A stretch of DNA of 64,000 nt from positions 149,330 to 213,329 of the forward strand of contig JAUQWO010000075.1 of assembly GCA_030835135.1 (NCBI GenBank). Direction: 5' to 3'. Below, piece after piece: positions 49,631 through 64,000 of the stretch (its first letter is position 1; each line of letters begins with the position of its first letter). The stretch comes from Bacteroidota bacterium (lineage in GTDB: Bacteria > Bacteroidota > Ignavibacteria > UBA10030 > UBA6906). The position numbers were made by a program, and so were the translations under genes. The notes beneath the pieces are model-generated. The model had not been told where the DNA came from, did not search any database, and saw only the letters and a list, made by a program, of their open reading frames with translations.

Positions 49631-50413
49631 ATGAAACAGATCCGATCACTGTTCTATTTTCTTGTCCTTGTTGCAGTTGGCGGTGCATACGCCTGGGGTG
49701 CGAGAGCATTCTATGCATCGGCCAATTCCTCCATCCCGTCCCTCGAACGGGCTGTCATGCTCATCCTTCCCTCTCTGGTGATCCTGATCTTTCTCGTCGG
49801 CTGGGCCGAGAGGTTCCTCCTGCGCAATGGTGCCATCATCAGCATCCTGGGCTCGTTGATCCTTGCGATCCACGAGAAATCGCCGATCGGACGGTCGCTG
49901 ACCAATCTGAAATTGTGGTATGCACTCAGCAAGCGCAGCACGGTTCCTGGTGACGCGACACAGGACATCCAGGCTGCCGATTATCCCCCGGGATACCTCG
50001 AGTACACCAAAGGGTTGACGCCCTCAGAGCGGACAGAGTTCCTGTCCAAGAATCCGTTCTCGCAGTGGATGGTCGCCGATGTCGTCAAACGGTACGAGAA
50101 CAATGTGAACGGGTTCGCGTACCTCGGCGCGGGCATCCTGATCTTCCTGATCGGTCTGCGCGGCCTGGGCATCATCGGGCGCGAACACCCGCTGCCCATC
50201 GTGATCTCGCTCGAGATCGAATTCACCATCATCGGCGTGCTCGGTCTCCTGTTGTTCTATAAACCCGAAGACAGCACGAAGATGTCCGTCAGTCTGGACG
50301 GCGCACTGCCGGCCGAAGAGCTGAAGGTGCTCGCGACGGAGATAAAGACCATCCGCGAGGAGATCACGGGGGACCGGACCGTCACCCTGCAGATCAGCCG
50401 GAAGAAGAACTGA
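49631..50413 (+). CDS. Multi-TM membrane protein, putative MotA/TolQ/ExbB-like ion-channel subunit
   Basis: 260 aa. 3 TM, then an ~80-aa loop, then 2 TM, then a charged tail. TM4 IGLRGLGIIG resembles the TolQ/ExbB IGLFGTVWGI motif. TM5 carries acidic/Thr residues (ISLEIEFTIIG). RBS AAGGATGGG. Confidence 0.3.
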   Translation: MKQIRSLFYFLVLVAVGGAYAWGARAFYASANSSIPSLERAVMLILPSLVILIFLVGWAERFLLRNGAIISILGSLILAIHEKSPIGRSLTNLKLWYALSKRSTVPGDATQDIQAADYPPGYLEYTKGLTPSERTEFLSKNPFSQWMVADVVKRYENNVNGFAYLGAGILIFLIGLRGLGIIGREHPLPIVISLEIEFTIIGVLGLLLFYKPEDSTKMSVSLDGALPAEELKVLATEIKTIREEITGDRTVTLQISRKKN

Positions 50414-50422
50414 GGCCCGGCC

Positions 50423-51091
50423 ATGAAGCTCTCCCTCTATTTCATCTTCTATGTCGTGATGATCCTCGAACTGCTCATCTTCATCATGGAGCGGGACGAG
50501 GCGACGGACAAACACCAGGCCGATGTGGTGGAGATGCTGACATTGTCGGACAGTCTTGCGAAGGAATTCAGCAAGGGGCTGACGATCAGTGTTCCGGAGA
50601 CCACAACGGCAGCGGTCTATGCGGGATCGCTCCGGAACGCATTGAGACGTCCCGGCGATAGTGTCCATGTGGTCCTTGTGCCTCTGGGACTCTGGTCCGA
50701 TGCCGAGCGACACGAGGTCGCATTGACGGTGTTCGATTCGACGGGGAAGGTCGTTGCCCGGGACTATCCCGGGATGAAGCGGCCGGACAAGAATGCGGAC
50801 CCGCGATTCCGGTTATCGGTGAACCGGGCGACGGGCGATGCCACCTTCAGCACGGTCTTCGATGCGGAAGGGAGTCATCGCTTCACCGCATGGTGCAGCG
50901 TGAAGCGGACCGTCCCCGGATATTATCCGTCGATGGTCAGGGACAGCGTGACGGTCAAGTTGAGGACGCTCCTCGGGGCAAAGATGGAGGTCGAAACCCC
51001 GAAGGCTGTTCCCTTTACGATCGTGGCAAAGGGGCAGGGTCAGCGTCTGCCGCCATGCGAGTACTGCGGCCAGGGTCCCTACAGACGTTAG
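50423..51091 (+). CDS. Single-pass membrane protein with intramembrane Glu (possible MotB/TolR/ExbD-like partner), periplasmic domain with C-terminal CxxC
   Basis: 222 aa; N-terminal TM LSLYFIFYVVMILELLIFIM with a mid-helix Glu; soluble C-terminal domain ending PPCEYCGQG; 9 bp after the upstream gene. Confidence 0.3.
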   Translation: MKLSLYFIFYVVMILELLIFIMERDEATDKHQADVVEMLTLSDSLAKEFSKGLTISVPETTTAAVYAGSLRNALRRPGDSVHVVLVPLGLWSDAERHEVALTVFDSTGKVVARDYPGMKRPDKNADPRFRLSVNRATGDATFSTVFDAEGSHRFTAWCSVKRTVPGYYPSMVRDSVTVKLRTLLGAKMEVETPKAVPFTIVAKGQGQRLPPCEYCGQGPYRR

Positions 51092-51127
51092 AGTGTTCCG
51101 AATCCAGGTCCATACCAGAGCAGGATC

Positions 51128-52252
51128 ATGAGAGTACCTATCGTTGTCATTGCAGTCATGCTCGTCCTGGCGGGAGTCGCGGGGACTCGCGCGCAGGATG
51201 CGGCGGCCAGACGGCTGAATATCGACTTCCCCGCGCAGAAGCTCGGCGACCGGCACATGCTGGTGGGCGAAGCGCTGATCGAGTCGACCTCGGTGGCGAC
51301 CTGGGTACGCCCCACGGTCTCCGTCGATATCTACGATCCGGCGTTCACCCGCAAACTCGCATCCGGCACGGCGGTGGTCAGCGGTCAGGGATCGCGCCGC
51401 ATCGCGGTGACGTCGATCCGTTTCGACAGCGCCGGGACGTACGCCGTCGTGCGACGGATCGATGGCGTCGGCGCGAACGACGGGCTCCGTCACCGGTACG
51501 GGTTCTACTGGCTGGTGACGGTCCGGTGGCCGGTGATCGCCAGCGAGCCCGATTCCACCTACTACTACGGCGAGAACGCGTTCTTCTCGTTCGCGGCGGG
51601 ACATGCGGATCAGCGCGGCTATGCCTTCAGCGTGCTGAAGGATGGCGAAGCCGCGATCACGGGTGAGGGGGCGGTCGTTCCTATCGAGAAGCTGTGGCGG
51701 GGAAAACTCAGCGGCCTCGGCGATTTCCAGGTCCGTGGTACCTACCACGGCGAGCCGTTCTCGTACGCCGATTCCACCGGACGCAATCCACGTCCCAGCG
51801 TGTGGAACGTCCGTATCGAGGTCCCACCCCAGCGCGAGGTCCTCACGCTCTGGTGGGATTCCACGGAATATGTGAAGAGGCAGGCCGCGGGGGTGCTTCG
51901 CCCACTCGACCTTTCCGGGCAGTCGTCGTTCCTGTCGCCGCTGCAGTTCCGCTTTGCGGCCAGTGGCCCGTTCTATGAAGGGCTGTATCTCATCCCGGCG
52001 CGGGTCAGCAGGGTGGAGATCGTCTCCTCACCGCCGGAATTCCTGCCGGCGGATATTACCCGCGGCTGGCGGACGTATGCGGAATCGCGCGGCCTCTGGC
52101 ACGTGATCGAGATCCGTCCCTCTGAACTGTTCCTGGAACGGACCCCCGCTGATGCACCGGTCGAAGTGACACTCCGGCTCACCATCACGGATGAGTTCGG
52201 ACGCATCACGCGGCGCACATACAAGTCATTGGTGTATTCCTCGCGACAATGA
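51128..52252 (+). CDS. Secreted hypothetical protein
   Basis: 374 aa; cleavable signal peptide (AGTRA-QD); beta-rich composition; AGGA RBS. Confidence 0.5.
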   Translation: MRVPIVVIAVMLVLAGVAGTRAQDAAARRLNIDFPAQKLGDRHMLVGEALIESTSVATWVRPTVSVDIYDPAFTRKLASGTAVVSGQGSRRIAVTSIRFDSAGTYAVVRRIDGVGANDGLRHRYGFYWLVTVRWPVIASEPDSTYYYGENAFFSFAAGHADQRGYAFSVLKDGEAAITGEGAVVPIEKLWRGKLSGLGDFQVRGTYHGEPFSYADSTGRNPRPSVWNVRIEVPPQREVLTLWWDSTEYVKRQAAGVLRPLDLSGQSSFLSPLQFRFAASGPFYEGLYLIPARVSRVEIVSSPPEFLPADITRGWRTYAESRGLWHVIEIRPSELFLERTPADAPVEVTLRLTITDEFGRITRRTYKSLVYSSRQ

Positions 52253-53868
52253 AGGTGAATGCAATGAAGTCCGGAATGAGGGTCTGTGCGGTCCTGTGTG
52301 TCCTGGGGGTGGGCGTCGCCAGGTCCGCAGCAGGTGGGGACGACGATGCCCGTCGCGCGTTGATCCATGAACGCCAGATGTATGCGCTCATCGAAGAGAA
52401 GGTGGAGGCGGATCGTGCGAACACGAATCTGTGGGGTACGTTCGATCTTTCCAGTCGCGATTTTGGCGCACTCAACGGCGATACGCTGGTGGGGCCCGCG
52501 GGCGGACGCATCATGATACGCGGCGACTACTCCGTGGGAGGGAAGACCGGTTCAAAATCCGTGACCTACCGGTACCGGATCCTGTATCTGCCCGACACGG
52601 AGGACATGCCGCTCCAGGTGATCCGGATCAGTGAGTTCGTGACGGAACGGACCACGTCGAGGCTGTCCTTCGAAGGAAGCGAGCGGGATTCGACCGATAC
52701 GATCGAATCGCTTCATGTCCTTGCGCTGGAAGATATCCTTGCGCTCGAACAGGCCGACCGCGGAGCACGGCCGGCGGTCAGGGTGGAACTGGAAAAGATG
52801 ATCCTGAATCTCGAGCGCAAAGGACGGACCGGTCCGTTGCGCAGAAAAGAGAGTGGGATCTTACCGGGGACCCCGGACTATATCCTTGCCGAAAGCAATC
52901 GGGACTACGCGCGGTATGCGCGTGTCAATGACCGGCATCCCTTCGCCGACCTCGACCGCGCGGAACGGCCGATCTCCATCGAAGCCACGTTTTCGAGTCT
53001 GACCGTGAGCCACAAACGGCTGTATGTCGGATCGGAGTCGATCGGTATCCATGGGTTCGGTCTCGAAGCCGGATTCGGCGACCGCGTGCTCAACCACGTG
53101 GCATTCCAATCGCCGGTCCTTACGTGGGGCTTGCGCTTCCTCGTGTTCTTCAATGATGCCCGCGGCTCCCTGATCGATTCCAGCTTCTTCCTCGATATGA
53201 AGATCCTGGGACGCACGCCCGTGAACACGGCCGGGTTCATCGACCGGTGGCGTCTCCACGTCGCCTCACCCGTGATGAGTCTGGACCGGCCGAAGTTGAA
53301 TGTGACATCGGGTGCCACCTTCGAGATCGTCACCGGCTCGCCGTACAACAGGGTACCGTATGTCACCTTCCTGTACTCCGGCGGCGCGAAGGAGTATTCG
53401 TCGCCGTCCATCCGCCGGCCGCGCGGCGACTCGAGCATGGCGTACTTCTCCACCCGTCAATGGGAGGCAAGCCTTGCCTTCCTCTGGAACGCCGACCGGG
53501 CGATGTACAACCGGTTCCGCCTGGACCTCGGCGCAGGGACCTACGATGTCCGGGAGGTCGTCTATACGGCGGCTGGCGGCGTCGCGGTGGATCTGCGCAA
53601 ACGCTCCATGAGTGAGGTCCAGCCTCTGATCCAATTGCAGTATACCCATGTCTCCAACAGAGCACGCTTTGGTGCCCGCGTCCGGTTCTTCGATAACCGG
53701 TTGACGTTCACTCCCTGGTTCAAGGTCTTTGATAGCGGTCCGCATGAGATCCGGCTCGAATCCATCCTCATGCCCAAGCCCGTCGGTCGGTCGATACGGG
53801 ATTGGGAAGTGGAACACGGGAACCTGATCCAGATCCGCTATCGCTACGGCTTTGACAAGAATTTCTGA
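52249..53868 (+). CDS. Putative outer membrane beta-barrel protein
   Basis: 539 aa; signal peptide; alternating hydrophobic beta-strand pattern; C-terminal IRYRYGFDKNF ends in Phe (OMP beta-signal); ATGA overlap with the upstream gene. Confidence 0.5.
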   Translation: MKVNAMKSGMRVCAVLCVLGVGVARSAAGGDDDARRALIHERQMYALIEEKVEADRANTNLWGTFDLSSRDFGALNGDTLVGPAGGRIMIRGDYSVGGKTGSKSVTYRYRILYLPDTEDMPLQVIRISEFVTERTTSRLSFEGSERDSTDTIESLHVLALEDILALEQADRGARPAVRVELEKMILNLERKGRTGPLRRKESGILPGTPDYILAESNRDYARYARVNDRHPFADLDRAERPISIEATFSSLTVSHKRLYVGSESIGIHGFGLEAGFGDRVLNHVAFQSPVLTWGLRFLVFFNDARGSLIDSSFFLDMKILGRTPVNTAGFIDRWRLHVASPVMSLDRPKLNVTSGATFEIVTGSPYNRVPYVTFLYSGGAKEYSSPSIRRPRGDSSMAYFSTRQWEASLAFLWNADRAMYNRFRLDLGAGTYDVREVVYTAAGGVAVDLRKRSMSEVQPLIQLQYTHVSNRARFGARVRFFDNRLTFTPWFKVFDSGPHEIRLESILMPKPVGRSIRDWEVEHGNLIQIRYRYGFDKNF

Positions 53869-53878
53869 GAGGGCTCCT

Positions 53879-55204
53879 ATGAAAGTGCTCCGCATCATTC
53901 CCTGCGTCCTTCTCGTTCTTGCTGCGGTGACCGCTTCGGCGGGTGACCGCGGTGGGAGATTGGATTCGATCTATCACCAGCTGATCAAGCACGACGCATC
54001 CATGTTCCCGCCGGAGACCTGGTCGGTGACCGATGTGCGGGTGATCCGCGAGATCCTGTACCAGGTCAGGAACAGCGAGCAGCTCTCCCATCTGGAGACC
54101 TCCGCGCTTCCCCCGCTGGCTGAACGCGTCGAGGTGATCTGTCACAAGCGTCTCGGCGACAATGAGATCGAGGAACTGCACCTGTGCTATGCCGGTGCGG
54201 CGGGCCGCGATACGCTGGTCCTCCGGGACCCTGTGTTGCTCCGGAACATCCTGGGTGACCAGCTCTACGTCGCGGTGCGGTCGCTCCGCGGGACGGGGGA
54301 GGACCGGTTCGACAGGGATCTCGCGCGCATGACGGACCTGTATCTGAACCCGCTTCGCCCGACACTCCTGCTGTGGTCCACCCAGCCCCGCAGTGCTGCA
54401 ACATACCATGCGCTCTCGGGCTTTGGCCGTCTCGGGAATGATGCATTGAACCTCCCGTTCTGGTTCCGCGGGACGATGATCGGAGGGCTCTCTCTGGCGC
54501 ACATTGACCGGCCCTCGGCGGTGCGCGATCCGGATTTTGCACACTACCGCGTCCGCGTGGGCATTGAGGAACCGATGAACTTCTCGGTCCCGCAGTCGCC
54601 CGGTCAGCAGCGCGAGAACTCGCTCTTCAAAGCGCGCCGGCTGGAAGGGTCGGGGTCGGCGGTCTACCTGAGCGGAAGCTACTCTCCCTGGACCCAGGTG
54701 CCGTTCCTCGGCATCGACACGGCGGGATTCATACGGCTGAATGCCGAACTGAGTGTGGCGATCGAGGATAAGGATGTGTTCTCTGCGAGGCTGCCGGAGA
54801 CCTTCTATTCGATCCGGAACTATGTGTCCCTGATGGCCGAGGTCCGCCGGCTGGGGATCTTCAATATTGGTGCGGGGCTCACGTGGCATGACATCCATCA
54901 TTTTTCGCGTGACCGGTATGACAATCATGCCACCAGGATCGACCCGACGCAGAACAATGTGCTGGCGGCTCTGGAATTCGGGATCGCGGAGGATGGCGGG
55001 GTGCTCCAGTACGATATCAAGACCGGGATCCATTTCAACATCGGCGATGGGTATGGATACCTCATGGTGAAGCCGGTCCTGATGATCAGCAACATTTTCG
55101 GGGTCGAAGTGACCTATTTCAAGGCGATCCGGTCGACGAAGGTGCCGGCGTGGCACTACGATTCGTACCTGTCGTTTGCCCCGGTTCTGCGGATCAACCT
55201 CTAG
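53879..55204 (+). CDS. Secreted/outer-membrane hypothetical protein
   Basis: 441 aa from MKVLRIIP; signal peptide (ASA-GD); beta-strand-like C-terminal region. Confidence 0.5.
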   Translation: MKVLRIIPCVLLVLAAVTASAGDRGGRLDSIYHQLIKHDASMFPPETWSVTDVRVIREILYQVRNSEQLSHLETSALPPLAERVEVICHKRLGDNEIEELHLCYAGAAGRDTLVLRDPVLLRNILGDQLYVAVRSLRGTGEDRFDRDLARMTDLYLNPLRPTLLLWSTQPRSAATYHALSGFGRLGNDALNLPFWFRGTMIGGLSLAHIDRPSAVRDPDFAHYRVRVGIEEPMNFSVPQSPGQQRENSLFKARRLEGSGSAVYLSGSYSPWTQVPFLGIDTAGFIRLNAELSVAIEDKDVFSARLPETFYSIRNYVSLMAEVRRLGIFNIGAGLTWHDIHHFSRDRYDNHATRIDPTQNNVLAALEFGIAEDGGVLQYDIKTGIHFNIGDGYGYLMVKPVLMISNIFGVEVTYFKAIRSTKVPAWHYDSYLSFAPVLRINL

Positions 55205-55285
55205 GCGGGTATTGTTGCTTTTTCCATGTGTTTTGCGTAAATTTCGTCTCTACTGATGATGTCCATTCTTCGCGCAGGAGCAACC

Positions 55286-56467
55286 ATGAATCGGTACCTC
55301 TCGTTTGTTGTGGCGGTTCTCGCCATGCTCTATGTCTCTACCACCGCATTCCAGTGCGGTTCTGCAGAGACCACGAGCGCCAAACTCTATATGCAGCAGA
55401 AGCAGTACGATAAGGCCGAGGCGAGCCTGATCAAGGAAGTGACCAAGAATGAGCGGAATGCGGAGGCGTGGTTCCTCCTCGGGCAGGTCCGCCTGGAAAT
55501 GAAGAAGTATCATGAGATGAACGAGGCCTATACCCGGGCACTGGCCATCGATACGGTCCACAAAGCCGACATCAGCCGCAACCGCCTGGCGGTCTGGGCC
55601 ATGATGTACAACGACGGCGTGAACCTGTACAACAAGGGCCGTGATACCGCAGCGTACTATGATCAGGCATTGCAGAAGTTCTCGACCGCGATCGAGATGC
55701 AGCCCGACAGCTCCAGCACGTACTACGTGCGGGCACTCGGCTACTATGCCAAGCAGGATATGAATGCAGCGGCTGCCGATCTGGCGATGACCCTGAAGCT
55801 GAATCCGGCGTCCGAAGATGCAGCCCGCCTCCTCGGTCAGATCCATTACAACCGGTCCATCGAGCGCCTCCAGGCGAAGGATGAAGCCGCCGCCAACGCC
55901 GAAATGGCCAAGGCCGTCCAGGCCTTCGAAGCCGCCTATGCAGCGAATCCGGGCAGCGCGGACAACATCACGAACCTGATCGACGTGTACGAGCGCACGA
56001 AGGCGTCGGACAAGGCGATGAAGCTGACCCGCACCGCGGTGGAGCAGGACCCGAAGAACAAGGTGTTCCGCTATGCCTACGGTGTGTTCCTCCTGAAGCA
56101 GGAGAAGTACGCCGAAGCGATCGCGCAGTTCGAGAAGGCTGTCGAGCTCGACCCGAACTACATCGATGCGGTGTACAACCTCGGCGTGTCGCACCTGAAC
56201 TGGGGCGTGAGCATGAAGGCCGAAGCCGACAAGAAGCTCGATGAAGAACGCGCCAAGAACAAGGGCAAGAGCAAGGAAGTGAAAGAGGACCTGTCGTACC
56301 GCGAACAGTTCAGGCTCGCCCTGCCGTACCTTGAGAAGGCCGCGATGACGCGCGACGATGATGCCGCGCTCTGGCAGCAGCTCGGAAAGCTCTACCTGAA
56401 CCTGAACATGAAGGACAAGGCCCAGGACGCATTCGCGAAGTTCGACAAGCTCACCAAGGGGAAATAA
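55286..56467 (+). CDS. TPR-repeat protein with signal peptide (possible lipoprotein)
   Basis: 393 aa from MNRYLSF (GGAG RBS); multiple TPR repeats (AEAWFLLGQVRLEMKKYHEMNEAYTRALAID etc.); Cys at the end of the h-region (AFQC). Confidence 0.7.
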   Translation: MNRYLSFVVAVLAMLYVSTTAFQCGSAETTSAKLYMQQKQYDKAEASLIKEVTKNERNAEAWFLLGQVRLEMKKYHEMNEAYTRALAIDTVHKADISRNRLAVWAMMYNDGVNLYNKGRDTAAYYDQALQKFSTAIEMQPDSSSTYYVRALGYYAKQDMNAAAADLAMTLKLNPASEDAARLLGQIHYNRSIERLQAKDEAAANAEMAKAVQAFEAAYAANPGSADNITNLIDVYERTKASDKAMKLTRTAVEQDPKNKVFRYAYGVFLLKQEKYAEAIAQFEKAVELDPNYIDAVYNLGVSHLNWGVSMKAEADKKLDEERAKNKGKSKEVKEDLSYREQFRLALPYLEKAAMTRDDDAALWQQLGKLYLNLNMKDKAQDAFAKFDKLTKGK

Positions 56468-56475
56468 GGCATCCG

Positions 56476-56802
56476 ATGAACGACCCCGCGCAGACCGGTC
56501 AACAGATCAACATCGAACTCGGCGAGAAAGAAGCCGAGGGGATCTATTCGAACCTCGCGATCATCACCCATTCGCCCGCGGAGTTCGTGATCGACTTCAC
56601 CCGCGTTCTGCCCGGGGTTCCCAAAGCCCGGGTTCATGCACGCGTGATCATGACCGCACAGCATGCCAAGCTGCTGCTGCGCGCACTTGAGGACAATATC
56701 AGCAAGTACGAACTCAAGTTCGGCGAGGTCAAGATCCATGGCGAAGGCGGGCCGGGATTGTCGTTCCAACCGATGATGCCTCCCGACGAAAAGGTACACT
56801 GA
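56476..56802 (+). CDS. DUF3467 family protein
   Basis: 108 aa; IYSNLAIITHSPAEFVIDF motif typical of DUF3467; last gene before a strong terminator. Confidence 0.6.
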   Translation: MNDPAQTGQQINIELGEKEAEGIYSNLAIITHSPAEFVIDFTRVLPGVPKARVHARVIMTAQHAKLLLRALEDNISKYELKFGEVKIHGEGGPGLSFQPMMPPDEKVH

Positions 56803-56811
56803 TCGGTGACA

Positions 56812-56850
56812 GGGGCCCCGCCGCACGCGGGGCCCCGCTGTCTTTTGTAG
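56812..56850 (+). terminator. Strong rho-independent terminator ending the 7-gene operon
   Basis: Perfect 10-bp GC stem GGGGCCCCGC / GCGGGGCCCC with 5-nt loop, followed by GCTGTCTTTTGTAG; a second T-run (CTCTTTTTTCC) follows. Confidence 0.8.
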
Positions 56851-56925
56851 AATCGCCTGCTCTTTTTTCCCTCCCGGCCATCCCGGCCAAAGTTGTAGTT
56901 CCCGTCGTGCCCTGCTAATCGCAAT

Positions 56926-56955
56926 TATCACAACGAGTTACGCGTGCCTGTGATA
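56926..56955 (+). promoter_or_regulatory. Inverted repeat TATCACA-N16-TGTGATA upstream of the sigma-54 promoter (candidate enhancer/regulator site)
   Basis: Perfect 7-bp arms at 56926-56932 and 56949-56955, ~25-50 bp upstream of the -24 element. Confidence 0.3.
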
Positions 56956-56977
56956 CCTGGCACGTATGTCTCCTCCG

Positions 56978-56993
56978 TGGCACCTGCTTTGCA
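56978..56993 (+). promoter_or_regulatory. Sigma-54 (RpoN) -24/-12 promoter TGGCAC-N5-TTGCA
   Basis: Exact consensus TGGCACctgctTTGCA; GG at 56979-80, GC at 56991-92; 55 bp upstream of the ATG at 57049. A second TGGCAC half-site lies at 56958. Confidence 0.65.
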
Positions 56994-57048
56994 CCTCACC
57001 CTCCGGTAACAGTGAACCGAACGGACAGTCGGAGGCAGGGCACCACAC

Positions 57049-59091
57049 ATGAACCACTCAACCACCCTCGTACACCTGGCGCGCATCACCGCCATCGGTC
57101 TTGCACTTGGAGCATTCCAGTGCATCAACAAACCGATGGATCCTGTGATGCCCAACTGGGACGTCGACCTTGCAGCACCGGTCGCGAACAGAACGTATAC
57201 ACTCGGCGAACTCGTGGAGAAGGACACCACAATTCTCAGCGTGAGCCCGGGCGGTACCCAATTGATGCTGAAGACCTCGGTGAAGTCCGATCCGACGCTC
57301 GTCGGCGATCGCATCTCCCTCGACGGATTCAATACGTCCTTCTCGTCGACCCTCGGCGCGTTCGCTGTCGAGGGCGGGCAGATGCGTCTCAATGTCAGCA
57401 TCCCGGGTTTCGCGTCCGGCCAGCAAACGATCATTCCGCCGATCCCGGCGACCGATATCCCGTCAGTATCCGGTGACCTCCCGTTCATCGAAAGCGTCCT
57501 CCTGGAGAGTGGCAATGTCTCGGTGCGGATCCAGAACCGCATGCCGGTGGCGATGCGCATCGAAAGCCCGATCGTCGCGCGCAACGAGGGTGGCGCCGCG
57601 ATCGCAACCTTCGACTTCGGCACATCGCTGATCGCATCAGGCGACAGCCGCACGGCGACGGCGAGCGTGGCAGGGAAGACCGTCCTGAAGAAGATCCAGC
57701 TGGAAAGCATCAGGATCTCCAGCCCGGGGAGCGGCCTCTCGGTCGTGACGATCCCGGATACGATGCTCCTCGCGGAGATCACGCCGGCATCGCTGGTGGC
57801 GACCGCCGCAACCGTGACGAACCTGTCGGCCCAGCACCTGTCCGCGACGCAGGATGTACCCCTGACCGGCGAATCGCTCGTCCGCGATGTGTGGATCAAC
57901 CGCGGCACACTCAGCATGCGCTTCGTGAGCAGTCTCGACATGCAGACCTCGTTACGCCTGCACCTGCCGGAACTGCTGCGCCCGAACGGCTCGGCGTTCG
58001 ACCAGGTACTGAACATCGCCCCCCGCGACTCGGCGCTGCTGACCATCGACCTTGGGCGGTACCGGCTGCACTCACAGACCGGCGGGTTCCTCCGCTCCCT
58101 GCGTGCTGAGTGCACGGCCGATGTCGCCCCGGCGGCCGGAACCTCTGTCACGGTGCGGTCCACCGATCAGATCTCGGCGCGCATCACCAGTACCCAGGTC
58201 GTGGCCGATAGCGCCGTGGCCGCGATCCAGCCCACGGTCATTGCGATCGACGAAACGATCGGTCTCAACCTCGGTGAGATCAGCAGGAAGTTCAGCGGCA
58301 GGATCAATATCCCCGCGGCGCAAATGGTCTTCACGCCGCGCACGTCCATTGCTGTGCCCATGGCGCTCAATCTCCGGTTCGAGGCCCGCGACACCAAGGG
58401 CGCCGTCTCTTCCCTGGATGTCCCGGTCACGAAGGGCGCCCTGGGGGCCACCCCGATCGCCTTCGCGGCGGGGGATGTCGGGGCATTCATGAGCTCCCTG
58501 ACCGGCACGCTCCCCGATTCGCTGCGCGTGGTCGGCAGCATCGTGATCAATCCTGACTATGACACCACGGTGGCCACGAGCATCGGACGCAACTGTTCGT
58601 TCGCTGCCGACGTGGACCTGGCCGTGCCGATGAGCCTGAGTCTCAGTGGCGGCGCGTTCTCCGACACGCTGGTGCTGGGGGACACGACGGGTGACGGCAA
58701 TGCGGACAAGCGGATCGACGAGAAGACGCTGGCCGACATGAATTCCGGACAGCTCCATGTGGAGATCGACAACGGCACGCCGCTGGCCCTGAAGGTGAAG
58801 TTCGGACTCATGGACCGCCTGCGGAAGACCCTGCTCCTCGTGCCGCAGACGGAAGGCGACTCGATCGCGATCAATGGTGGCGTGGTGATGAACGGCGATG
58901 TGTACGCGTCGAGCCGGTCCACGTTCACGATCAACCTGTCGAACATCGATATCCGTCAGTTCAACGTGGCGGACCTGGTCAAGGTGGACCTTGCCCTGGC
59001 GACCTCCGGCACGGGTGCCGTGAACTTCAGGACCACAGACAAAGTGCATGTCCGGGTGTGGACACAATTCTCCTACAGGGTGAACCCATGA
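57049..59091 (+). CDS. Large secreted hypothetical protein (possible lipoprotein)
   Basis: 680 aa; signal peptide ending LALGAFQC; beta-rich, repetitive Ig-like composition; GGAGG RBS. Confidence 0.5.
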   Translation: MNHSTTLVHLARITAIGLALGAFQCINKPMDPVMPNWDVDLAAPVANRTYTLGELVEKDTTILSVSPGGTQLMLKTSVKSDPTLVGDRISLDGFNTSFSSTLGAFAVEGGQMRLNVSIPGFASGQQTIIPPIPATDIPSVSGDLPFIESVLLESGNVSVRIQNRMPVAMRIESPIVARNEGGAAIATFDFGTSLIASGDSRTATASVAGKTVLKKIQLESIRISSPGSGLSVVTIPDTMLLAEITPASLVATAATVTNLSAQHLSATQDVPLTGESLVRDVWINRGTLSMRFVSSLDMQTSLRLHLPELLRPNGSAFDQVLNIAPRDSALLTIDLGRYRLHSQTGGFLRSLRAECTADVAPAAGTSVTVRSTDQISARITSTQVVADSAVAAIQPTVIAIDETIGLNLGEISRKFSGRINIPAAQMVFTPRTSIAVPMALNLRFEARDTKGAVSSLDVPVTKGALGATPIAFAAGDVGAFMSSLTGTLPDSLRVVGSIVINPDYDTTVATSIGRNCSFAADVDLAVPMSLSLSGGAFSDTLVLGDTTGDGNADKRIDEKTLADMNSGQLHVEIDNGTPLALKVKFGLMDRLRKTLLLVPQTEGDSIAINGGVVMNGDVYASSRSTFTINLSNIDIRQFNVADLVKVDLALATSGTGAVNFRTTDKVHVRVWTQFSYRVNP

Positions 59092-60491
59092 CAACCAAGG
59101 CCATCGTACTCGGTATCAGCATCGCGGCCCTCGTCGCGGGTGCCTGCACACCAGCGATCGCAGGCGGTGAGCGGACGAACATTCAGGGTGTTGGCATGGC
59201 CCGCACCTTCGTGGCCCACGCGCGCGGGCTCGATGCCGTCGGCATCAACCCGGCCAACCTGGCCGCACAGGACGGCGGTCGCGTGACGCTCGGCCTCATG
59301 CCCATCGGGGTCCACCTCGGGAGTGATTTCCTGACCTACGGTCTCTATTCGAAATACTTCACCGGGCAGGAAAGCGGCACCGGCCGGGTCAGCAAGCATC
59401 TGACCGACGCCGACAAGCAGGATATCCTCTCCTCGTTCCCTGATGGCGTGGGCCGGCTTTCGGCCCACCTGGAAGCGCGGCCCGTGGGATTGTCGGTGCG
59501 CATCACGGATCACAGCCGGATCGCCCTCACCATGACGGAGTATGTGATGGTGAATGCGATGATCCCCCACGACTATCTCGAATTCCTGTTCTATGGCAAC
59601 ACGCCGGGGTCAGTGTACGAATTCGGGAAGACCTCTGCCGAGGCGTACTGGCTCCGCGAGTATGCGCTGTCGTTCGGCACGAACCTGCCGGCGCCGTCCT
59701 TCCTGAACAGCCTCTCCGCGGGGGCTGCGGTGAAGATGGTGCATGGATTCGGATATTTCCAGGTCGACAGGTTCAATACATCCATGCTCACGGGCACCGA
59801 TGGCATCCTGCATGGCTCGGTGGATGTGCACGGCCGTGCGTCGGGTATCGATCCCCTGACGGGTGCGGAGAACGCGAACTTCCAGCCGTTCCCTGCCCCC
59901 GCGGGATCAGGACTGGCCTTCGATCTGGGCGTGGCGTCGGATGTGAACGACTACCTGTGTGTTGGGCTGAGCGTCACGGATATCGGGTCGGTGGAGTGGC
60001 GTGCGAATGTCGAGGAGCTCGTCGGGAGCGGGCAACTCGAAGTGACGGACCCGTTGAGCCAGGTGCAGCGCGATTCGATCGAGAATGCGGTGTCGGGTGA
60101 ACATCATCCCGGCACGTCATTCACGACGGCGCTCCCCACGACGTTCCGTGTCGGTGCCGCGATCGAACTCCACAAGACCCCGCTCCTGAAGAACTTCCTG
60201 TGGGGTGAGTGGACGTTCGCGTGTGACTACAATCAGGGCCTCGTGGATGGGGCCGGCATCTCGACGTCCGGGCGGTTCTCCATGGGCCTGGAATTCCGTC
60301 CGTGGGGATTCCTACCGCTCCGTACCGGTGCATCGTTCGGCGGGGTGGATCATTTCAACTTCGCGCTCGGGTTCGGCCTGCACTTCGGGGTGTTCGATCT
60401 CGACCTGGCCTCGGAACATCTGAATTTCCTGCTGCAGGAGGAGTCGCTGTCCCACGGCTCGATCGCCATGGGTATGCGTATCCGCATCTGA
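59088..60491 (+). CDS. FadL/PorV-like outer membrane beta-barrel protein
   Basis: 467 aa from MTTKAIV (ATGA overlap). Signal peptide. N-terminal motif [27 protein letters not shown] resembles the FadL/OmpP1/PorV hatch motif (G-G-A...NPA-LA). Confidence 0.45.
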
Positions 60492-61972
60492 GCAGTGTGT
60501 CCGCGGGTGTGCAGGGACGGTGGGTGGCCGTTCCTGCCTGCTGCCCGGCGACCCCGTCTGGTGGTGCAGACGGGGTCGTTTTGTTTCTCGAGGATGAACT
60601 TCGAGAGGTCGCGGTCCCGCACGATCGATGAGAGGCGGGACACGACGCGATCGTGATCGATCACGATCGTGGCTGAGGGGATCTCGTCCGGTGCCAGGTA
60701 CAGGGCATCCTCGAGGAGTGTCGTCAGGATGGTATGGAGCCGGCGCGCGCCGATGTTCTCCACCTGTTCGTTCACTTCGGTGGCGATCCGGGCGATCTCC
60801 CGGATGCCGTCCTCCCGGAACTCCAGCGTGATACCCTCCGTGGCGAGCAACGCGCTGTATTGCTTGAGCAGGGCATTCTGGGGAAGCGTCAGGATCTTGA
60901 CGAAATCGTCCTCGGTCAGGCTGTTGAGTTCCACGCGGATGGGGAAGCGGCCCTGCAATTCGGGGATCAGATCGGAGGGCTTGGCCACGTGGAACGCACC
61001 GGAGGCGATGAACAGGACATGGTCGGTCTTCACCATGCCGTACTTCGTCATCACGTTGGATCCTTCCACGATCGGGAGCAGGTCGCGCTGGACCCCTTCC
61101 CGTGATACGTCCGGTCCGCCGGCCGGCCCCTTGGACCCGGCGATCTTGTCGATCTCATCGAGAAAGACGATCCCGGAATTCTCCACCCGCTGCACGGCTT
61201 CGCGGACGGCGGCGTCCTGATCGATGAGCTTGGCGGCCTCCTCGTTCGTGAGGAGCGTGCGTGCCTCAGCAACGGACACCTTCCGGCGTTTCATCTTCTT
61301 CGGGAACATGCTGCCGAAGAGGTCCTGGATGTTCACCCCCACCTCTTCCATGTTCATCGGGCCCACGACCTGCATCATCGGACTGTCGTTCGCGGGGAGG
61401 TCGAGCTCCACCATCCGGCCATCGAGTTCGCCGGCGCGGAGCCGCTGGCGGAATTTCTCTCGCGTGGTGCCGCCATCGTCGACGGGCACCGGGGTCTGTT
61501 CTCCCTCGGGGGCAGGGGAGGGACGTTTGCGCGGAGCGGGAATGAGGATGTCCAGCACCCGTTCCTCGGCCATCTCCTTCGCTTTCTCCTCGACGCCCTT
61601 CTTGTGCTCGGCCTTCACCATCGTGACGGCAAATTCAGTCAGGTCGCGGATGATGGATTCCACATCGCGGCCAACATACCCGACCTCGGTGAATTTGGAT
61701 GCCTCCACCTTGATGAACGGCGCGTTCGCCAGCCGCGCCAGGCGGCGGGCGATCTCGGTCTTGCCCACGCCGGTCGGGCCGATCAGGATGATGTTGTTGG
61801 GCATGATCTCTTCGCGGAGACCGGGGGCCACCTGCAGGCGGCGCCAGCGGTTCCGGAGGGCGATCGCCACCGACCGCTTTGCGGCGTCCTGACCGATGAT
61901 GTATGCGTCGAGTTCCCGGACGATCTCGCGCGGCGTGAGCTCGGAACGGGGTGCAGCAGGGGATGATGTCAT
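60350..61972 (-). CDS. hslU: ATP-dependent protease ATPase subunit HslU, with anomalous ~80-codon C-terminal read-through
   Basis: Canonical HslU from [34 protein letters not shown], Walker [16 protein letters not shown], through the conserved terminus ...DLSKFIL at about 60590. No stop follows: the ORF continues Arg-rich through the terminator hairpin and 142 bp antisense into the neighbouring gene. Confidence 0.85.
60549..60590 (+). terminator. Rho-independent terminator after the sigma-54 operon
   Basis: 12-bp stem GCGACCCCGTCTG/CAGACGGGGTCG, 6-nt loop GTGGTG, then TTTTGTTTCTCG. Confidence 0.8.
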
Positions 61973-62549: not shown

Positions 62550-64000
62550 TCAGGTGAGCTTGCGGCGGAGACGGGCGACAGGGATGAGCATCGCCTCGCG
62601 GTACTTTGCCACCGTCCGGCGCGCGATGTTCAGCCCTTCGGTGTTGAGCATCTCCGCGAGCTTGTGGTCGCTCAGAGGATGCAGAGGGTCCTCGGCATCG
62701 ATGAGCACCTTGAGTTTCTTCTTCACTTCCTTGTTCGAGACCTCGTCACCATCGGTCGTGCTGATGGAATCGCTGAAGAAATGACGGAGGGAGAAGACCC
62801 CGTAATCGGTCTGGACATACTTGCTGTTCACGACGCGGCTGATCGTGGAGATGTCCATGCTGATCACTTCGGCGATGTCCTTGTAGATCATCGGCCGCAG
62901 GCCCTCGCCGGTGTCGAAGTATTCGTGCTGCTTCTCGACGATCGTGCGCATGACCTTGAGCATGGTCTCGCGGCGCTGGTGGATCGAACTGATGAACCAC
63001 TTCGCGGCCTCGAAACGCTGCCGGATGAAGTCCTTTGCCTCGGTGGAGACCCCGTTCTTCTTCCGCTTGGACATCAGGTCCTTGTAGGCCTTGTTGATCC
63101 GCAGCGGGGGGATGTTCCGGTCGTTGAGCGAGATGACGAAGTCCGTCTCGGTCTTCGTCACGAGGAAATCGGGGACGATGTAGTTCTCGTGCGCGCTGAA
63201 TTCGCCCTCGCCCGGCTTCGGGTTCAGGTGCTGGATGAACTCGATCACCTGCTTGAGCTCGTCGAGGGTGATCCCGAGTTTCTTGGCGAGCTCCTCGAAA
63301 TGACGCATCGTGAAGTCGTCGTAGAATTCGGTGAGGAGGCGCGTGGCCAGTGTCTTGAGTCCGGGCTCCAGCGGGGTGAGCTCCAGCTGGACCAGGAGGC
63401 ATTCCTGCAGGGAGCGGGAGCCGATCCCCACCGGGTCCATGTGCTGGATCTTCCGGAGGACCTGTTCGGCCTTCTCCACCGTGATCGCCGTGCTGTTCGT
63501 GAGGTTCACGTCCTGCACGATCGTGATCAGATCGCGGCGGAGATACCCGTCCTCGTCCACGTTCCCGATGATCTCCTGCCCGATCAGGATCTCGTCATCG
63601 TCGAGGTCGAGCAGACTGAACTGCTCCAGCAGGCGGTGGGAGAGCGAGACCGAATCCGCGATGGGGAGCTCTTCCTTCTCCTCGCCGTCGAACGGCTCCC
63701 GGGCCTTGTACCCGTGGAGGTCATCGTTCATGTAGTCTTCGATCGAGTACTTCTCGTCCTCCTCGGCGTGACTCTCTTCGACCTTCTCGGGAGGGGTCTC
63801 TTCGACGGGTTCTTCCTTTTCCGGTTCGTCCTGCTCCGTCTGCGCCTCAAGTTCCTCTTCGTATCCCTCCTCCAGGAGAGGGTTCATTTCCAGCTCGGCC
63901 TTGATCTTCTGCTCGAGGGCAAGGGTGGGGAGCTGCAGCATCTTCAGGTACTGCACCTGCTGCGGCGACAGCTTCATCATCATCTTATGCTGGAGCGAGA
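62550..64000 (-). CDS. rpoN: RNA polymerase sigma-54 factor RpoN (N-terminus probably beyond window edge)
   Basis: RpoN box [10 protein letters not shown] near the C-terminus; [23 protein letters not shown]-terminal region. The frame stays open upstream of the ATG at 63983 to the window end, and the N-terminus appears a few residues short. Confidence 0.88.

Follow-up and report, generated by a model that had tools for sequence, protein, structure and literature searches.

A conserved, probable sigma-54 promoter upstream of an operon for a probable lipoprotein and a DUF5723 outer-membrane barrel in Ignavibacteriota

Genetic organization of the locus

The window, i.e. the whole stretch of 64,000 nucleotides that was analysed, harbours a two-gene unit preceded by a -24/-12 motif, bounded by terminators and followed at some distance by the gene encoding sigma-54. 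The main features are as follows:

56812..56845, + strand: upstream terminator ending the DUF3467 gene (hairpin 56812-56836 with a 10-bp all-GC stem and a 5-nt loop, then a T-tract)
56978-56993, + strand: candidate sigma-54 promoter of exact consensus, with -24 TGGCAC (GG at 56979-80) and -12 TTGCA (GC at 56991-92)
57004..57048, + strand: predicted 5' UTR of about 45 nt, from sigma-54 promoter geometry, with GGAGG at 57031-57035
57049..59091, + strand: ORF1, 680-aa secreted all-beta protein and probable lipoprotein (signal peptide, then A-F-Q-C25)
59088..60491, + strand: ORF2, 467-aa DUF5723 outer-membrane beta-barrel with a predicted FadL/TodX/PorV/BamG-like fold, coupled to ORF1 by ATGA
60547..60590, + strand: operon terminator between the convergent ORF2 and hslU (hairpin 60547-60580 with a 14-pair stem, then TTTTGTTTCT)
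62550..63983, - strand: rpoN, encoding sigma-54 (TIGR02395, 430 bits over residues 3-474; RpoN box ARRTVAKYR at residues 454-462)

The two GC-rich hairpins and their T-tracts were found within a few bases of where the earlier note had placed strong terminators bounding the unit, with energies of -29 kcal/mol (z -3.45) upstream and -28.3 kcal/mol (z -3.84) downstream, neither of which was reached by any of 200 shuffles; judging from its sequence, the former would insulate the operon from read-through of the DUF3467 gene. The pair of overlapping reading frames described in that note is likewise present, and the ATGA overlap recurs in L033, L034 and L035. More generally, all loci read, the distant L036 and that of Ca. 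Kryptonium (L037) among them, have an ORF1-family gene immediately 5' of one for a DUF5723 protein, and the operon has invariable upstream neighbours, namely genes for a TPR lipoprotein and a DUF3467 protein. Regarding the genes located further upstream (49631-55204), which the earlier note had regarded as a candidate envelope system tied to the operon, homologues of u260 and u222 were found in none of the loci, and u374, u539 and u450 occur in about half of them, being missing from L001, L016, L004/L005, L035 and L010, all of which keep ORF1-ORF2. Because their synteny is so patchy, a functional link with these genes is rejected.

The rpoN gene lies 2.06 kb from the ORF2 stop codon, as had been noticed before, and 5.6 kb from the promoter. 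Its adjacency to the operon is conserved in more than 20 loci and amounts to conserved synteny; it is therefore not taken as evidence of regulation. A motif scan for the signatures of bacterial enhancer-binding proteins (GAFTGA-like, GESGxGK and ESELFGH) returned none in the long reading frames of the window, in agreement with what had been claimed, nor in those of loci L001-L032.

The -24/-12 motif and its conservation

The 16-mer at 56978-56993 on the + strand reads TGGCACctgctTTGCA, that is TGGCAC, CTGCT and TTGCA, and thus corresponds over all 11 specified bases to the perfect sigma-54 consensus announced for this position. Ten bases separate the GG of the -24 element from the GC of the -12 element within TGGCAC-N5-TTGCW, and the motif stands 55 nt 5' of the ORF1 ATG, on the same strand and inside a 246-nt intergenic region. 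While 0.057 occurrences of TGGCAC-N5-TTGCW are expected per 64-kb window (both strands), one was observed, intergenic and pointing to the downstream gene, and relaxed sigma-54 patterns still returned this single match in the window. A promoter scan retrieved no sigma-70-like site on the + strand of the intergenic region, where direct reading did not reveal any Bacteroidota-type TAnnTTTG motif either. From the position of the -12 element, transcription would start near 57004-57006, giving a 5' UTR with no significant structure (z 0.13).

Among orthologous loci for which upstream DNA is available, TGGCA(C/T)-N5-TTG(C/T) is found in 20 out of 20, at -65 to -72 from the start codon, and is kept even where ORF1 identity is as low as 35-39% (L010, L011 and L024); L034 and L035 carry the variants (C/T)GGCAT-N5-TTGAA. 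Mean pairwise identity reaches 0.92 within the motif but falls to 0.34 in the adjoining spacer and to 0.38 in the stretch between the proximal dyad (see below) and the -24 element. Besides, 23 of the 26 relaxed-motif matches in 389 kb (window and loci) fall at the orthologous promoter site. The C of the -12 element belongs to the best-conserved positions of sigma-54 promoters; here it gives way to T in the majority of orthologous promoters and to A in two, and the C directly 5' of TTTG is invariant. Conservation in 20 orthologous loci, along with an intact rpoN, makes it very probable that the motif functions as a sigma-54 promoter, as the earlier note had proposed from the window sequence. 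Upstream of the most divergent gene pairs, those of L036 and L037, the motif is absent, and sigma-54 control of the pair would therefore be confined to one clade.

The resulting lineage-specific consensus, cTGGCACCGGCTTTGyA, offers a high-confidence anchor for defining the Ignavibacteriota sigma-54 regulon. A full-text literature search combining sigma-54 regulon and Ignavibacteriota returned nothing relevant, and this regulon appears to be undescribed.

Conserved islands upstream of the promoter

Further upstream, short conserved blocks are separated by a stretch of fixed length and by an inverted repeat to which attention had been drawn previously:

56845..56854, + strand: distal element TTGTAGAATC (TGTAGAA[T/A]C), located near -158 relative to the predicted start
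56856..56915, + strand: spacer of fixed length and unconserved sequence (mean pairwise identity 0.34), C-rich and G-poor
56915..56919, + strand: CTAAT block, (c)TAA(c/g), with TAA invariant at -62 to -60 from TGGCAC in 15/15 clade loci
56926..56955, + strand: TATCACA-N16-TGTGATA inverted repeat (TATCACA 56926-56932, TGTGATA 56949-56955), 7/7 complementary, arms 16 nt apart
56931..56940, + strand: CAA-N4-TTA block (clade consensus tCAA-N4-TT), conserved columns, centre about -69 from the predicted start
56949..56964, + strand: proximal dyad TGTGA-TACCTG-GCACG (clade consensus tGTGa-N6-cCACa), centre about -47.5, candidate regulator site

None of the 16 loci in the 50-84% identity group lacks the distal element, which stands 132±1 nt 5' of the T of TGGCAC, and variants TTGAAGAAAC/G occur in the distant loci L034, L024 and L010; the last T of its TAGAAT is an A in L006, L007 and L018. 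This TGTAGAATC element is a candidate enhancer or activator site. The spacer that follows has a pyrimidine content of 57-77% across 15 close-clade loci, the 72% of the window placing it in the top 0.3% of the window's 60-nt windows, and displays no consensus RNA structure. The TAA block then stands at about -88 from the predicted start, and the CAA-N4-TT block bears an apparent resemblance to the IHF core WATCAANNNNTTR.

As for the proximal dyad, its core GTG-N8-CAC can be recognized in some 11 of 15 clade sequences, strict 5-nt arms being complementary at just 2-4 of 5 positions; its columns are paired by RNAalifold, and stronger versions exist in L035 (CCCTGTG-N8-CACAGGG) and in Ca. Kryptonium L037 (TGTGA-TTTCAA-TCACT). 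Its centre lies some 23 bp 5' of the -24 element, classical enhancer sites being farther away. The inverted repeat, which had been put forward as a regulator site, overlaps this dyad. It is indeed perfect in the window, but its arms match at 2/7 positions in the closest relative, L015, and at 0-5/7 elsewhere, and a 7-bp inverted repeat arises in 8% of the shuffles of the 128-nt segment, so that alone it is not significant; it is therefore rejected as a conserved operator. The only conserved portion is its right arm, TGTGA, which is part of tGTGa-N6-cCACa. Similarly, the second TGGCAC reported by the earlier note does exist, at 56958-56963, but forms the right half of the dyad, and it is no duplicated -24 element because most relatives read (C/T)GCCAC instead.

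Taken as a pattern of sequence and spacing, the four rigidly spaced islands would most likely bind an activator together with architectural or modulating proteins. They provide a compact and testable case of a promoter architecture conserved in geometry and not in sequence.

The encoded proteins

ORF1 comprises several beta-sandwich domains, and the tail following the Cys is highly conserved. The lipobox of the window protein, A-F-Q-C, is atypical at position -1, and the neighbouring TPR protein also has AFQC; Cys25 is found in at least 90% of 32 close homologues, and in the wider family the Cys follows canonical lipoboxes, e.g. LAGC, LLSC, LVSC or FVGC. Retention of a Cys behind the signal peptide within the family, together with the canonical lipoboxes seen in many homologues, makes it probable that ORF1 is a lipoprotein, in line with the secreted protein or lipoprotein anticipated from the window. 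No Pfam model exists for the family, which comprises about 1,350 representatives at 50% identity; an exact-protein look-up of the window ORF1 gave no record and a profile search of a word-indexed database gave no additional distant relatives. In structural matches, its domains weakly resemble (low scores) carbohydrate-binding modules and a Bacteroides surface glycan-binding protein, and no type IX C-terminal sorting domain was detected by Pfam or NCBIfam.

ORF2 matches Pfam DUF5723 (PF18990) with 107.3 bits for a cutoff of 26.8, over profile positions 6-371 of 376. The structure predicted for it is a barrel of the FadL type whose N-terminal hatch contains NPA, and these residues, N54-P55-A56 of the N-terminal region, show no variation among homologues. 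The same motif is conserved in the hatch of FadL (PMC8407342). The expectation of an outer-membrane protein resembling FadL, PorV or DUF5723 with a FadL hatch is thus borne out at the level of fold, the structural match scores being 25.4 for PorV and 22.6 for BamG, with TodX, FadL and PorV all above BamG. The profile check proposed along with it succeeded for DUF5723 but not for the other families: there was no Pfam match to FadL/Toluene_X (PF03349) at E<=0.01, and PorV/PorQ (NF033709) gave 19.7 bits, far under the family cutoff of 90. Searched by sequence against PDB chains, including those of BamG and BamH, neither ORF1 nor ORF2 had a match at E<=10.

Proposed mechanism and alternative explanations

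We consider it likely that 56978-56993 is the RpoN-dependent promoter of an activator-gated, translationally coupled operon for a lipoprotein and a DUF5723 barrel, which probably form a complex. RNA polymerase with sigma-54 would bind the -24 GG and the -12 GC as a closed complex, awaiting an ATP-hydrolysing enhancer-binding activator presumably encoded elsewhere in the genome; from the predicted start site, a bicistronic, translationally coupled mRNA would be produced and would end at the 60547-60580 hairpin. No other promoter of the operon is apparent, since the + strand lacks a sigma-70-like site and a terminator of -29 kcal/mol stands upstream. Gene pairing and the analogy with BamG-BamH suggest that the ORF2 barrel most likely docks the ORF1 lipoprotein in an outer-membrane complex.

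A housekeeping promoter could be imagined instead, with TAGAAT (56847-56852) as its -10 element and TGGCAC...TTTG as an element of a leader RNA of about 190 nt. TGTAGAAT is indeed invariant and directly 3' of the terminator, TAGAAT agrees with TATAAT at 5/6 positions, and an RNA might in principle account for the region's constant length. A -10 box is, however, incompatible with the A found in place of the last T in three loci and with TTGAAGAAAC/G in three more; a -35 element is missing, and scanning the + strand for sigma-70 sites gave nothing, so TAGAAT was rejected in this role. The leader RNA or riboswitch was discarded as well: RNAalifold on 14 orthologous leaders gives -1.1 kcal/mol, with neither consensus structure nor any covariation, the Rfam scan yields sub-threshold noise and no credible match, and the bases held invariant in the downstream motif coincide exactly with the sigma-54 consensus. 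This explanation is therefore extremely improbable. Scarcely better placed, and very unlikely in our opinion, is the idea that the 16-mer is the site of some other DNA-binding protein, whether repressor, activator or a sigma factor of another kind, that looks sigma-54-like by coincidence. The textbook consensus would not predict a -12 C varying between C, T and A next to an invariant C before TTTG, and the motif scan of the window and L001-L032 found no activator gene for the promoter; yet the match in the window is exact, TGGCAC and TTG are kept at exact spacing (with the variants TGGCA(C/T), and (C/T)GGCAT in L034/L035), the distance to the start codon fits a sigma-54 promoter, the sigma-54 of this genome has a canonical DNA-binding RpoN box, and the intergenic region contains neither a -35/-10 nor a TAnnTTTG motif.

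A further question concerns the proteins rather than the promoter. ORF2 could be a FadL/TodX-type channel for the uptake of hydrophobic substrates and ORF1 a substrate-capturing surface lipoprotein, instead of a docking pair of the BamG-BamH or PorV kind, a possibility that we regard as rather doubtful. The NPA that is invariant in ORF2 is needed for the substrate-induced opening of FadL (PMC8407342), and the weak resemblance of ORF1 domains to carbohydrate-binding modules and a glycan-binding protein points in the same direction. The non-transporters PorV and BamG nevertheless score almost as high against ORF2, which lacks a sequence-level FadL/Toluene_X match; no catabolic genes are linked to ORF1-ORF2 in any locus, and the extremely conserved N-terminal tail of ORF1 recalls the BamH tail wedged into BamG (PMC12578637). 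Going beyond the favoured activator-gated operon, it may be speculated, as an unlikely extension, that ORF1-DUF5723 is a conditional relative of BamH-BamG in function, not in sequence, its FadL-fold barrel docking the large lipoprotein by way of the conserved N-terminal tail so as to remodel or service the outer membrane, and that in this clade it is switched on through a new sigma-54 enhancer architecture, in which an asymmetric 10-bp distal site is kept exactly 132 bp away by a C-rich spacer with no sequence constraint and is combined with a proximal CRP-like dyad older than the promoter.

Comparison with known systems

Classical enhancer-dependent sigma-54 promoters include for instance glnAp2, nifH and Pu. 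The promoter described here shares with them the -24 TGGCAC and -12 TTGC at canonical spacing, the intergenic location some 55 nt 5' of the start codon, an rpoN gene in the genome, and upstream islands extending to about -160 with an IHF-core-like block in between. It differs in that no activator gene is linked to it in the window or in L001-L032, orthologues do not conserve the -12 C, the distal element consists of one asymmetric 10-mer and not of a dyad and is held at a rigid 132±1 nt, and the sole dyad is unusually close, at about -47.

Within the same FCB superphylum, envelope stress, surface proteins of gliding motility and exported lipoproteins belong to the sigma-54 regulon in Flavobacterium psychrophilum, where -24/-12 promoters (motif SM4) drive remFG-sprCDBF, including the outer-membrane protein SprF (PMC9723704). 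Both genes and lineage are different, no DUF5723 gene is reported there, and those promoters have experimental support, whereas the present one is known from sequence.

Regarding the proteins, BamG-BamH belong to the Bacteroidota BAM complex, with BamG2-BamH2 as a putative operon in B. thetaiotaomicron (PMC12611786, PMC12578637; PDB 9n2d, 9hj3, 9hjm). BamG is placed in FadL/Toluene_X by its authors (PMC12611786, PMC12578637), unlike ORF2, a DUF5723 protein; homology with BamG-BamH is not indicated by sequence, and BamH is absent among the listed structural matches of ORF1. ORF2 also remains below the family cutoff for PorV/PorQ of type IX secretion (PDB 6h3i), no type IX genes being linked to ORF1-ORF2. 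With the FadL/TodX/OmpP1 channels (PDB 1t16, 3brz), its structural alignments show 12-14% identity and, unlike theirs, its gene is always coupled to that of a 680-aa lipoprotein. On the whole, this is very probably a sigma-54-dependent operon and a solid if rather unremarkable regulatory annotation for two unstudied proteins. Its promoter gives a regulatory handle on two large families devoid of assigned function, the ORF1 family and DUF5723, whose adjacency spans every related locus read from Ignavibacteriota MAGs to Ca. Kryptonium, and the ORF2 fold ties the pair to the recently discovered FadL-like accessory barrels of Bacteroidota, namely PorV and BamG.

A probable sigma-54 promoter ahead of an outer-membrane gene pair

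A very probable sigma-54 promoter heads a widespread, uncharacterised pair of outer-membrane genes, made of a 680-aa candidate lipoprotein (ORF1) and a 467-aa barrel of the DUF5723 family (ORF2). The 16-mer TGGCACctgctTTGCA at 56978-56993, upstream of ORF1, lies where the earlier note had read a sigma-54 motif, and it is the single match in the window, looser patterns included, against 0.057 exact matches expected per window. The ATGA overlap between the two genes, the two hairpin terminators and rpoN, all reported in the same note, are each present in the sequence; the note was right on its main points and the finding is real.

Features of the locus
49631-55204, + strand, five consecutive ORFs (260, 222, 374, 539 and 450 aa) with no Pfam or NCBIfam match
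55256-56467, + strand, TPR protein gene
56476-56802, + strand, DUF3467 protein gene
56812-56836, hairpin terminator, -29 kcal/mol (0 of 200 shuffles reach that energy)
57049-59091, + strand, ORF1
59088-60491, + strand, ORF2, with ATGA overlap with ORF1
60547-60580, hairpin terminator, -28.3 kcal/mol (0 of 200 shuffles reach that energy)
62550-63983, - strand, rpoN, with RpoN box ARRTVAKYR

The strongest evidence for the promoter is comparative, drawn from 32 related loci of genome and metagenome collections plus five retrieved by exact-protein look-up, all from metagenome-assembled genomes (MAGs) labelled Ignavibacteriota or Bacteroidota; ORF2 itself is identical or nearly identical to Ignavibacteriota MAG proteins. 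The form TGGCA(C/T)-N5-TTG(C/T) stands 65-72 nt ahead of the start codon in 20/20 loci with DNA upstream of the ORF1 orthologue, among them three where ORF1 identity is only 35-39% (L010, L011 and L024), and two further loci (L034 and L035) carry (C/T)GGCAT-N5-TTGAA at the equivalent place. The C of the -12 element is replaced by T in more than half of the orthologues and by A in two. Pairwise identity in an anchored 15-locus alignment averages 0.92 for the 16-mer, 0.34 for the upstream spacer and 0.38 for the 13 nt directly 5' of the -24 element, and 23 of the 26 occurrences of the relaxed motif in 389 kb (window plus all loci) fall at this one orthologous site. Within the intergenic region, no sigma-70-like site was found on the + strand and direct reading revealed no Bacteroidota-type TAnnTTTG. 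These sequence comparisons lead to the conclusion that the 16-mer is very probably a sigma-54 promoter kept by purifying selection; the geometry of such promoters predicts a transcription start near 57004-57006 and a 5' UTR roughly 45 nt long. Since the most distant pair of loci, L036 and L037 (Ca. Kryptonium), showed no sigma-54 motif, such control appears to be a feature of one clade.

Genomic setting and gene pairing

In every locus read, Kryptonium included, a DUF5723 gene comes next after the ORF1-family gene, and the 4-nt overlap is repeated in L033, L034 and L035. The cluster of TPR, DUF3467, ORF1 and ORF2 genes is kept even in L036, where rpoN is not nearby. In the window, whose G+C content is about 62%, hslU, hslV and rpoN lie on the - strand, convergent with ORF2; a motif scan of the window and of loci L001-L032 found no activator gene. 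Read-through from the DUF3467 gene is blocked by the strong terminator. As for the five ORFs further upstream, taken in the earlier note for a candidate envelope system, no homologue of the 260- and 222-aa proteins was found in any related locus, and the other three are patchy, recurring ahead of the TPR gene in roughly half of the loci.

The 108-aa DUF3467 protein shows 81-98% identity across loci where ORF1 identity is only 36-84%, and its gene keeps a constant position between the TPR gene and ORF1, distant L036 included; for a small protein of unassigned function, such constraint is unusual. At 60350-60610 (- strand), hslU passes its usual end without a stop codon: the C-terminus reads DLSK(F/Y)IL followed by a stop in 11/11 relatives compared, and in the window continues as FILEKQND for 79 additional codons, crossing the 60547-60580 hairpin and overlapping the ORF2 3' end on the opposite strand. 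This extension reflects either a genuine loss of the stop codon or an error of assembly.

Conserved islands upstream of the promoter

Several islands, with negative offsets counted from TGGCAC, precede the promoter.

Upstream elements
56846-56854, distal element TGTAGAA(T/A)C, directly after the DUF3467 terminator
-62, invariant TAA inside cTAAc
-47 to -38, tCAA-N4-TT block
-29 to -14, dyad tGTGa-N6-cCACa

The distal element, in which no known motif was recognised, is invariant and lies 132±1 nt 5' of TGGCAC in 16/16 close-group loci (L001-L020 range), with the variant TTGAAGAAAC/G in distant L034, L024 and L010. The tCAA-N4-TT block shows a possible resemblance to the IHF core. The second TGGCAC pointed out in the earlier note is present at 56958-56963 but is really the right half of the dyad, mostly (C/T)GCCAC in relatives. 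Similarly, the inverted repeat TATCACA (56926-56932) / TGTGATA (56949-55), 16 nt apart and proposed there as a regulator site, does exist, yet pairs 7/7 only in this genome, complementarity falling to 2/7 in the closest relative L015 (ORF1 84% identical) and 0-5/7 in other loci; chance alone yields a 7-bp repeat in 8% of shuffles, so it is not significant by itself. Near-perfect, CRP-like dyads occur upstream of distant ORF1 homologues, namely the clearer CCCTGTG-N8-CACAGGG in L035 (3828-3850) and TGTGA-TTTCAA-TCACT in Kryptonium (L037, 4923-5001). Because the latter locus has the dyad and no sigma-54 motif, the dyad may be older than the promoter, as an earlier regulatory element of the gene pair.

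For about 60 nt downstream of the distal element there is no sequence conservation. This spacer (56856-56915) is C-rich and G-poor, its 72% pyrimidine ranking in the top 0.3% of 60-nt windows of the stretch, and pyrimidine content stays at 57-77% across 15 close loci; it might represent a Rho-utilisation-like tract or a constraint on DNA geometry. RNA was rejected as the cause of the fixed spacing, RNAalifold finding neither structure nor covariation over the whole region, and there is no credible Rfam match. Nor is TAGAAT within the distal element plausible as a -10 box: three loci have A in place of its final T, it is missing from the distant variants, and no -35 accompanies it. We infer a nucleoprotein architecture, as usual at enhancer-dependent promoters, where an activator would occupy the distal site and a modulating regulator the proximal dyad.

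The encoded proteins

ORF1 has no Pfam or NCBIfam match. Its family comprises 1,349 cluster representatives in an exhaustive profile search, mostly full-length (680-700 aa), and all named members looked up bear the label "hypothetical". A signal peptide is followed by Cys, with canonical lipoboxes in many members (LAGC, LLSC, FVGC and others), and then by a strongly conserved PxxPxWD...P...T tail. The window ORF1 has the atypical box GAFQC; because the neighbouring TPR protein shares it (its signal peptide ends TAFQC), the sequences suggest that Q at -1 is tolerated by the lipoprotein machinery of this lineage.

ORF2 belongs to Pfam DUF5723 (107 bits), with N54-P55-A56 invariant in 58 homologues; its N-terminus scores a sub-threshold 19.7 bits against the PorV/PorQ family (cutoff 90), and no solved chain matches at sequence level even at E<=10. 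In Kryptonium, the DUF5723 barrel (L037, 7108-8841) begins with a CarboxypepD_reg domain, such as typically stands at the N-terminus of SusC-type TonB-dependent transporters in Bacteroidota; the gene pair has a different architecture there.

Comparison with known systems

Three things take this locus beyond routine annotation: an exceptionally clear footprint, upstream islands at rigid spacing, and a tie to two large protein families whose function is unknown. Within the FCB superphylum there is a precedent for surface and envelope proteins under sigma-54 control (PMC9723704). As regards the proteins, PorV is a FadL-fold barrel holding type IX secretion cargo at the Bacteroidota cell surface, and BamG anchors the surface lipoprotein BamH via the conserved BamH N-terminus, BamG2-BamH2 being a paralogous pair in a putative operon (PMC12611786, PMC12578637). 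ORF1-ORF2 is alike in outline, with a barrel, a lipoprotein with a conserved tail and adjacent genes, but falls short of membership in both the PorV and the BamG/BamH family and is therefore filed under neither. That ORF2 is a FadL-type uptake channel and ORF1 its capture lipoprotein is a live alternative. By analogy, the closest functional counterparts would be PorV and BamG, barrels of the FadL fold that keep a partner attached to the surface of Bacteroidota cells.
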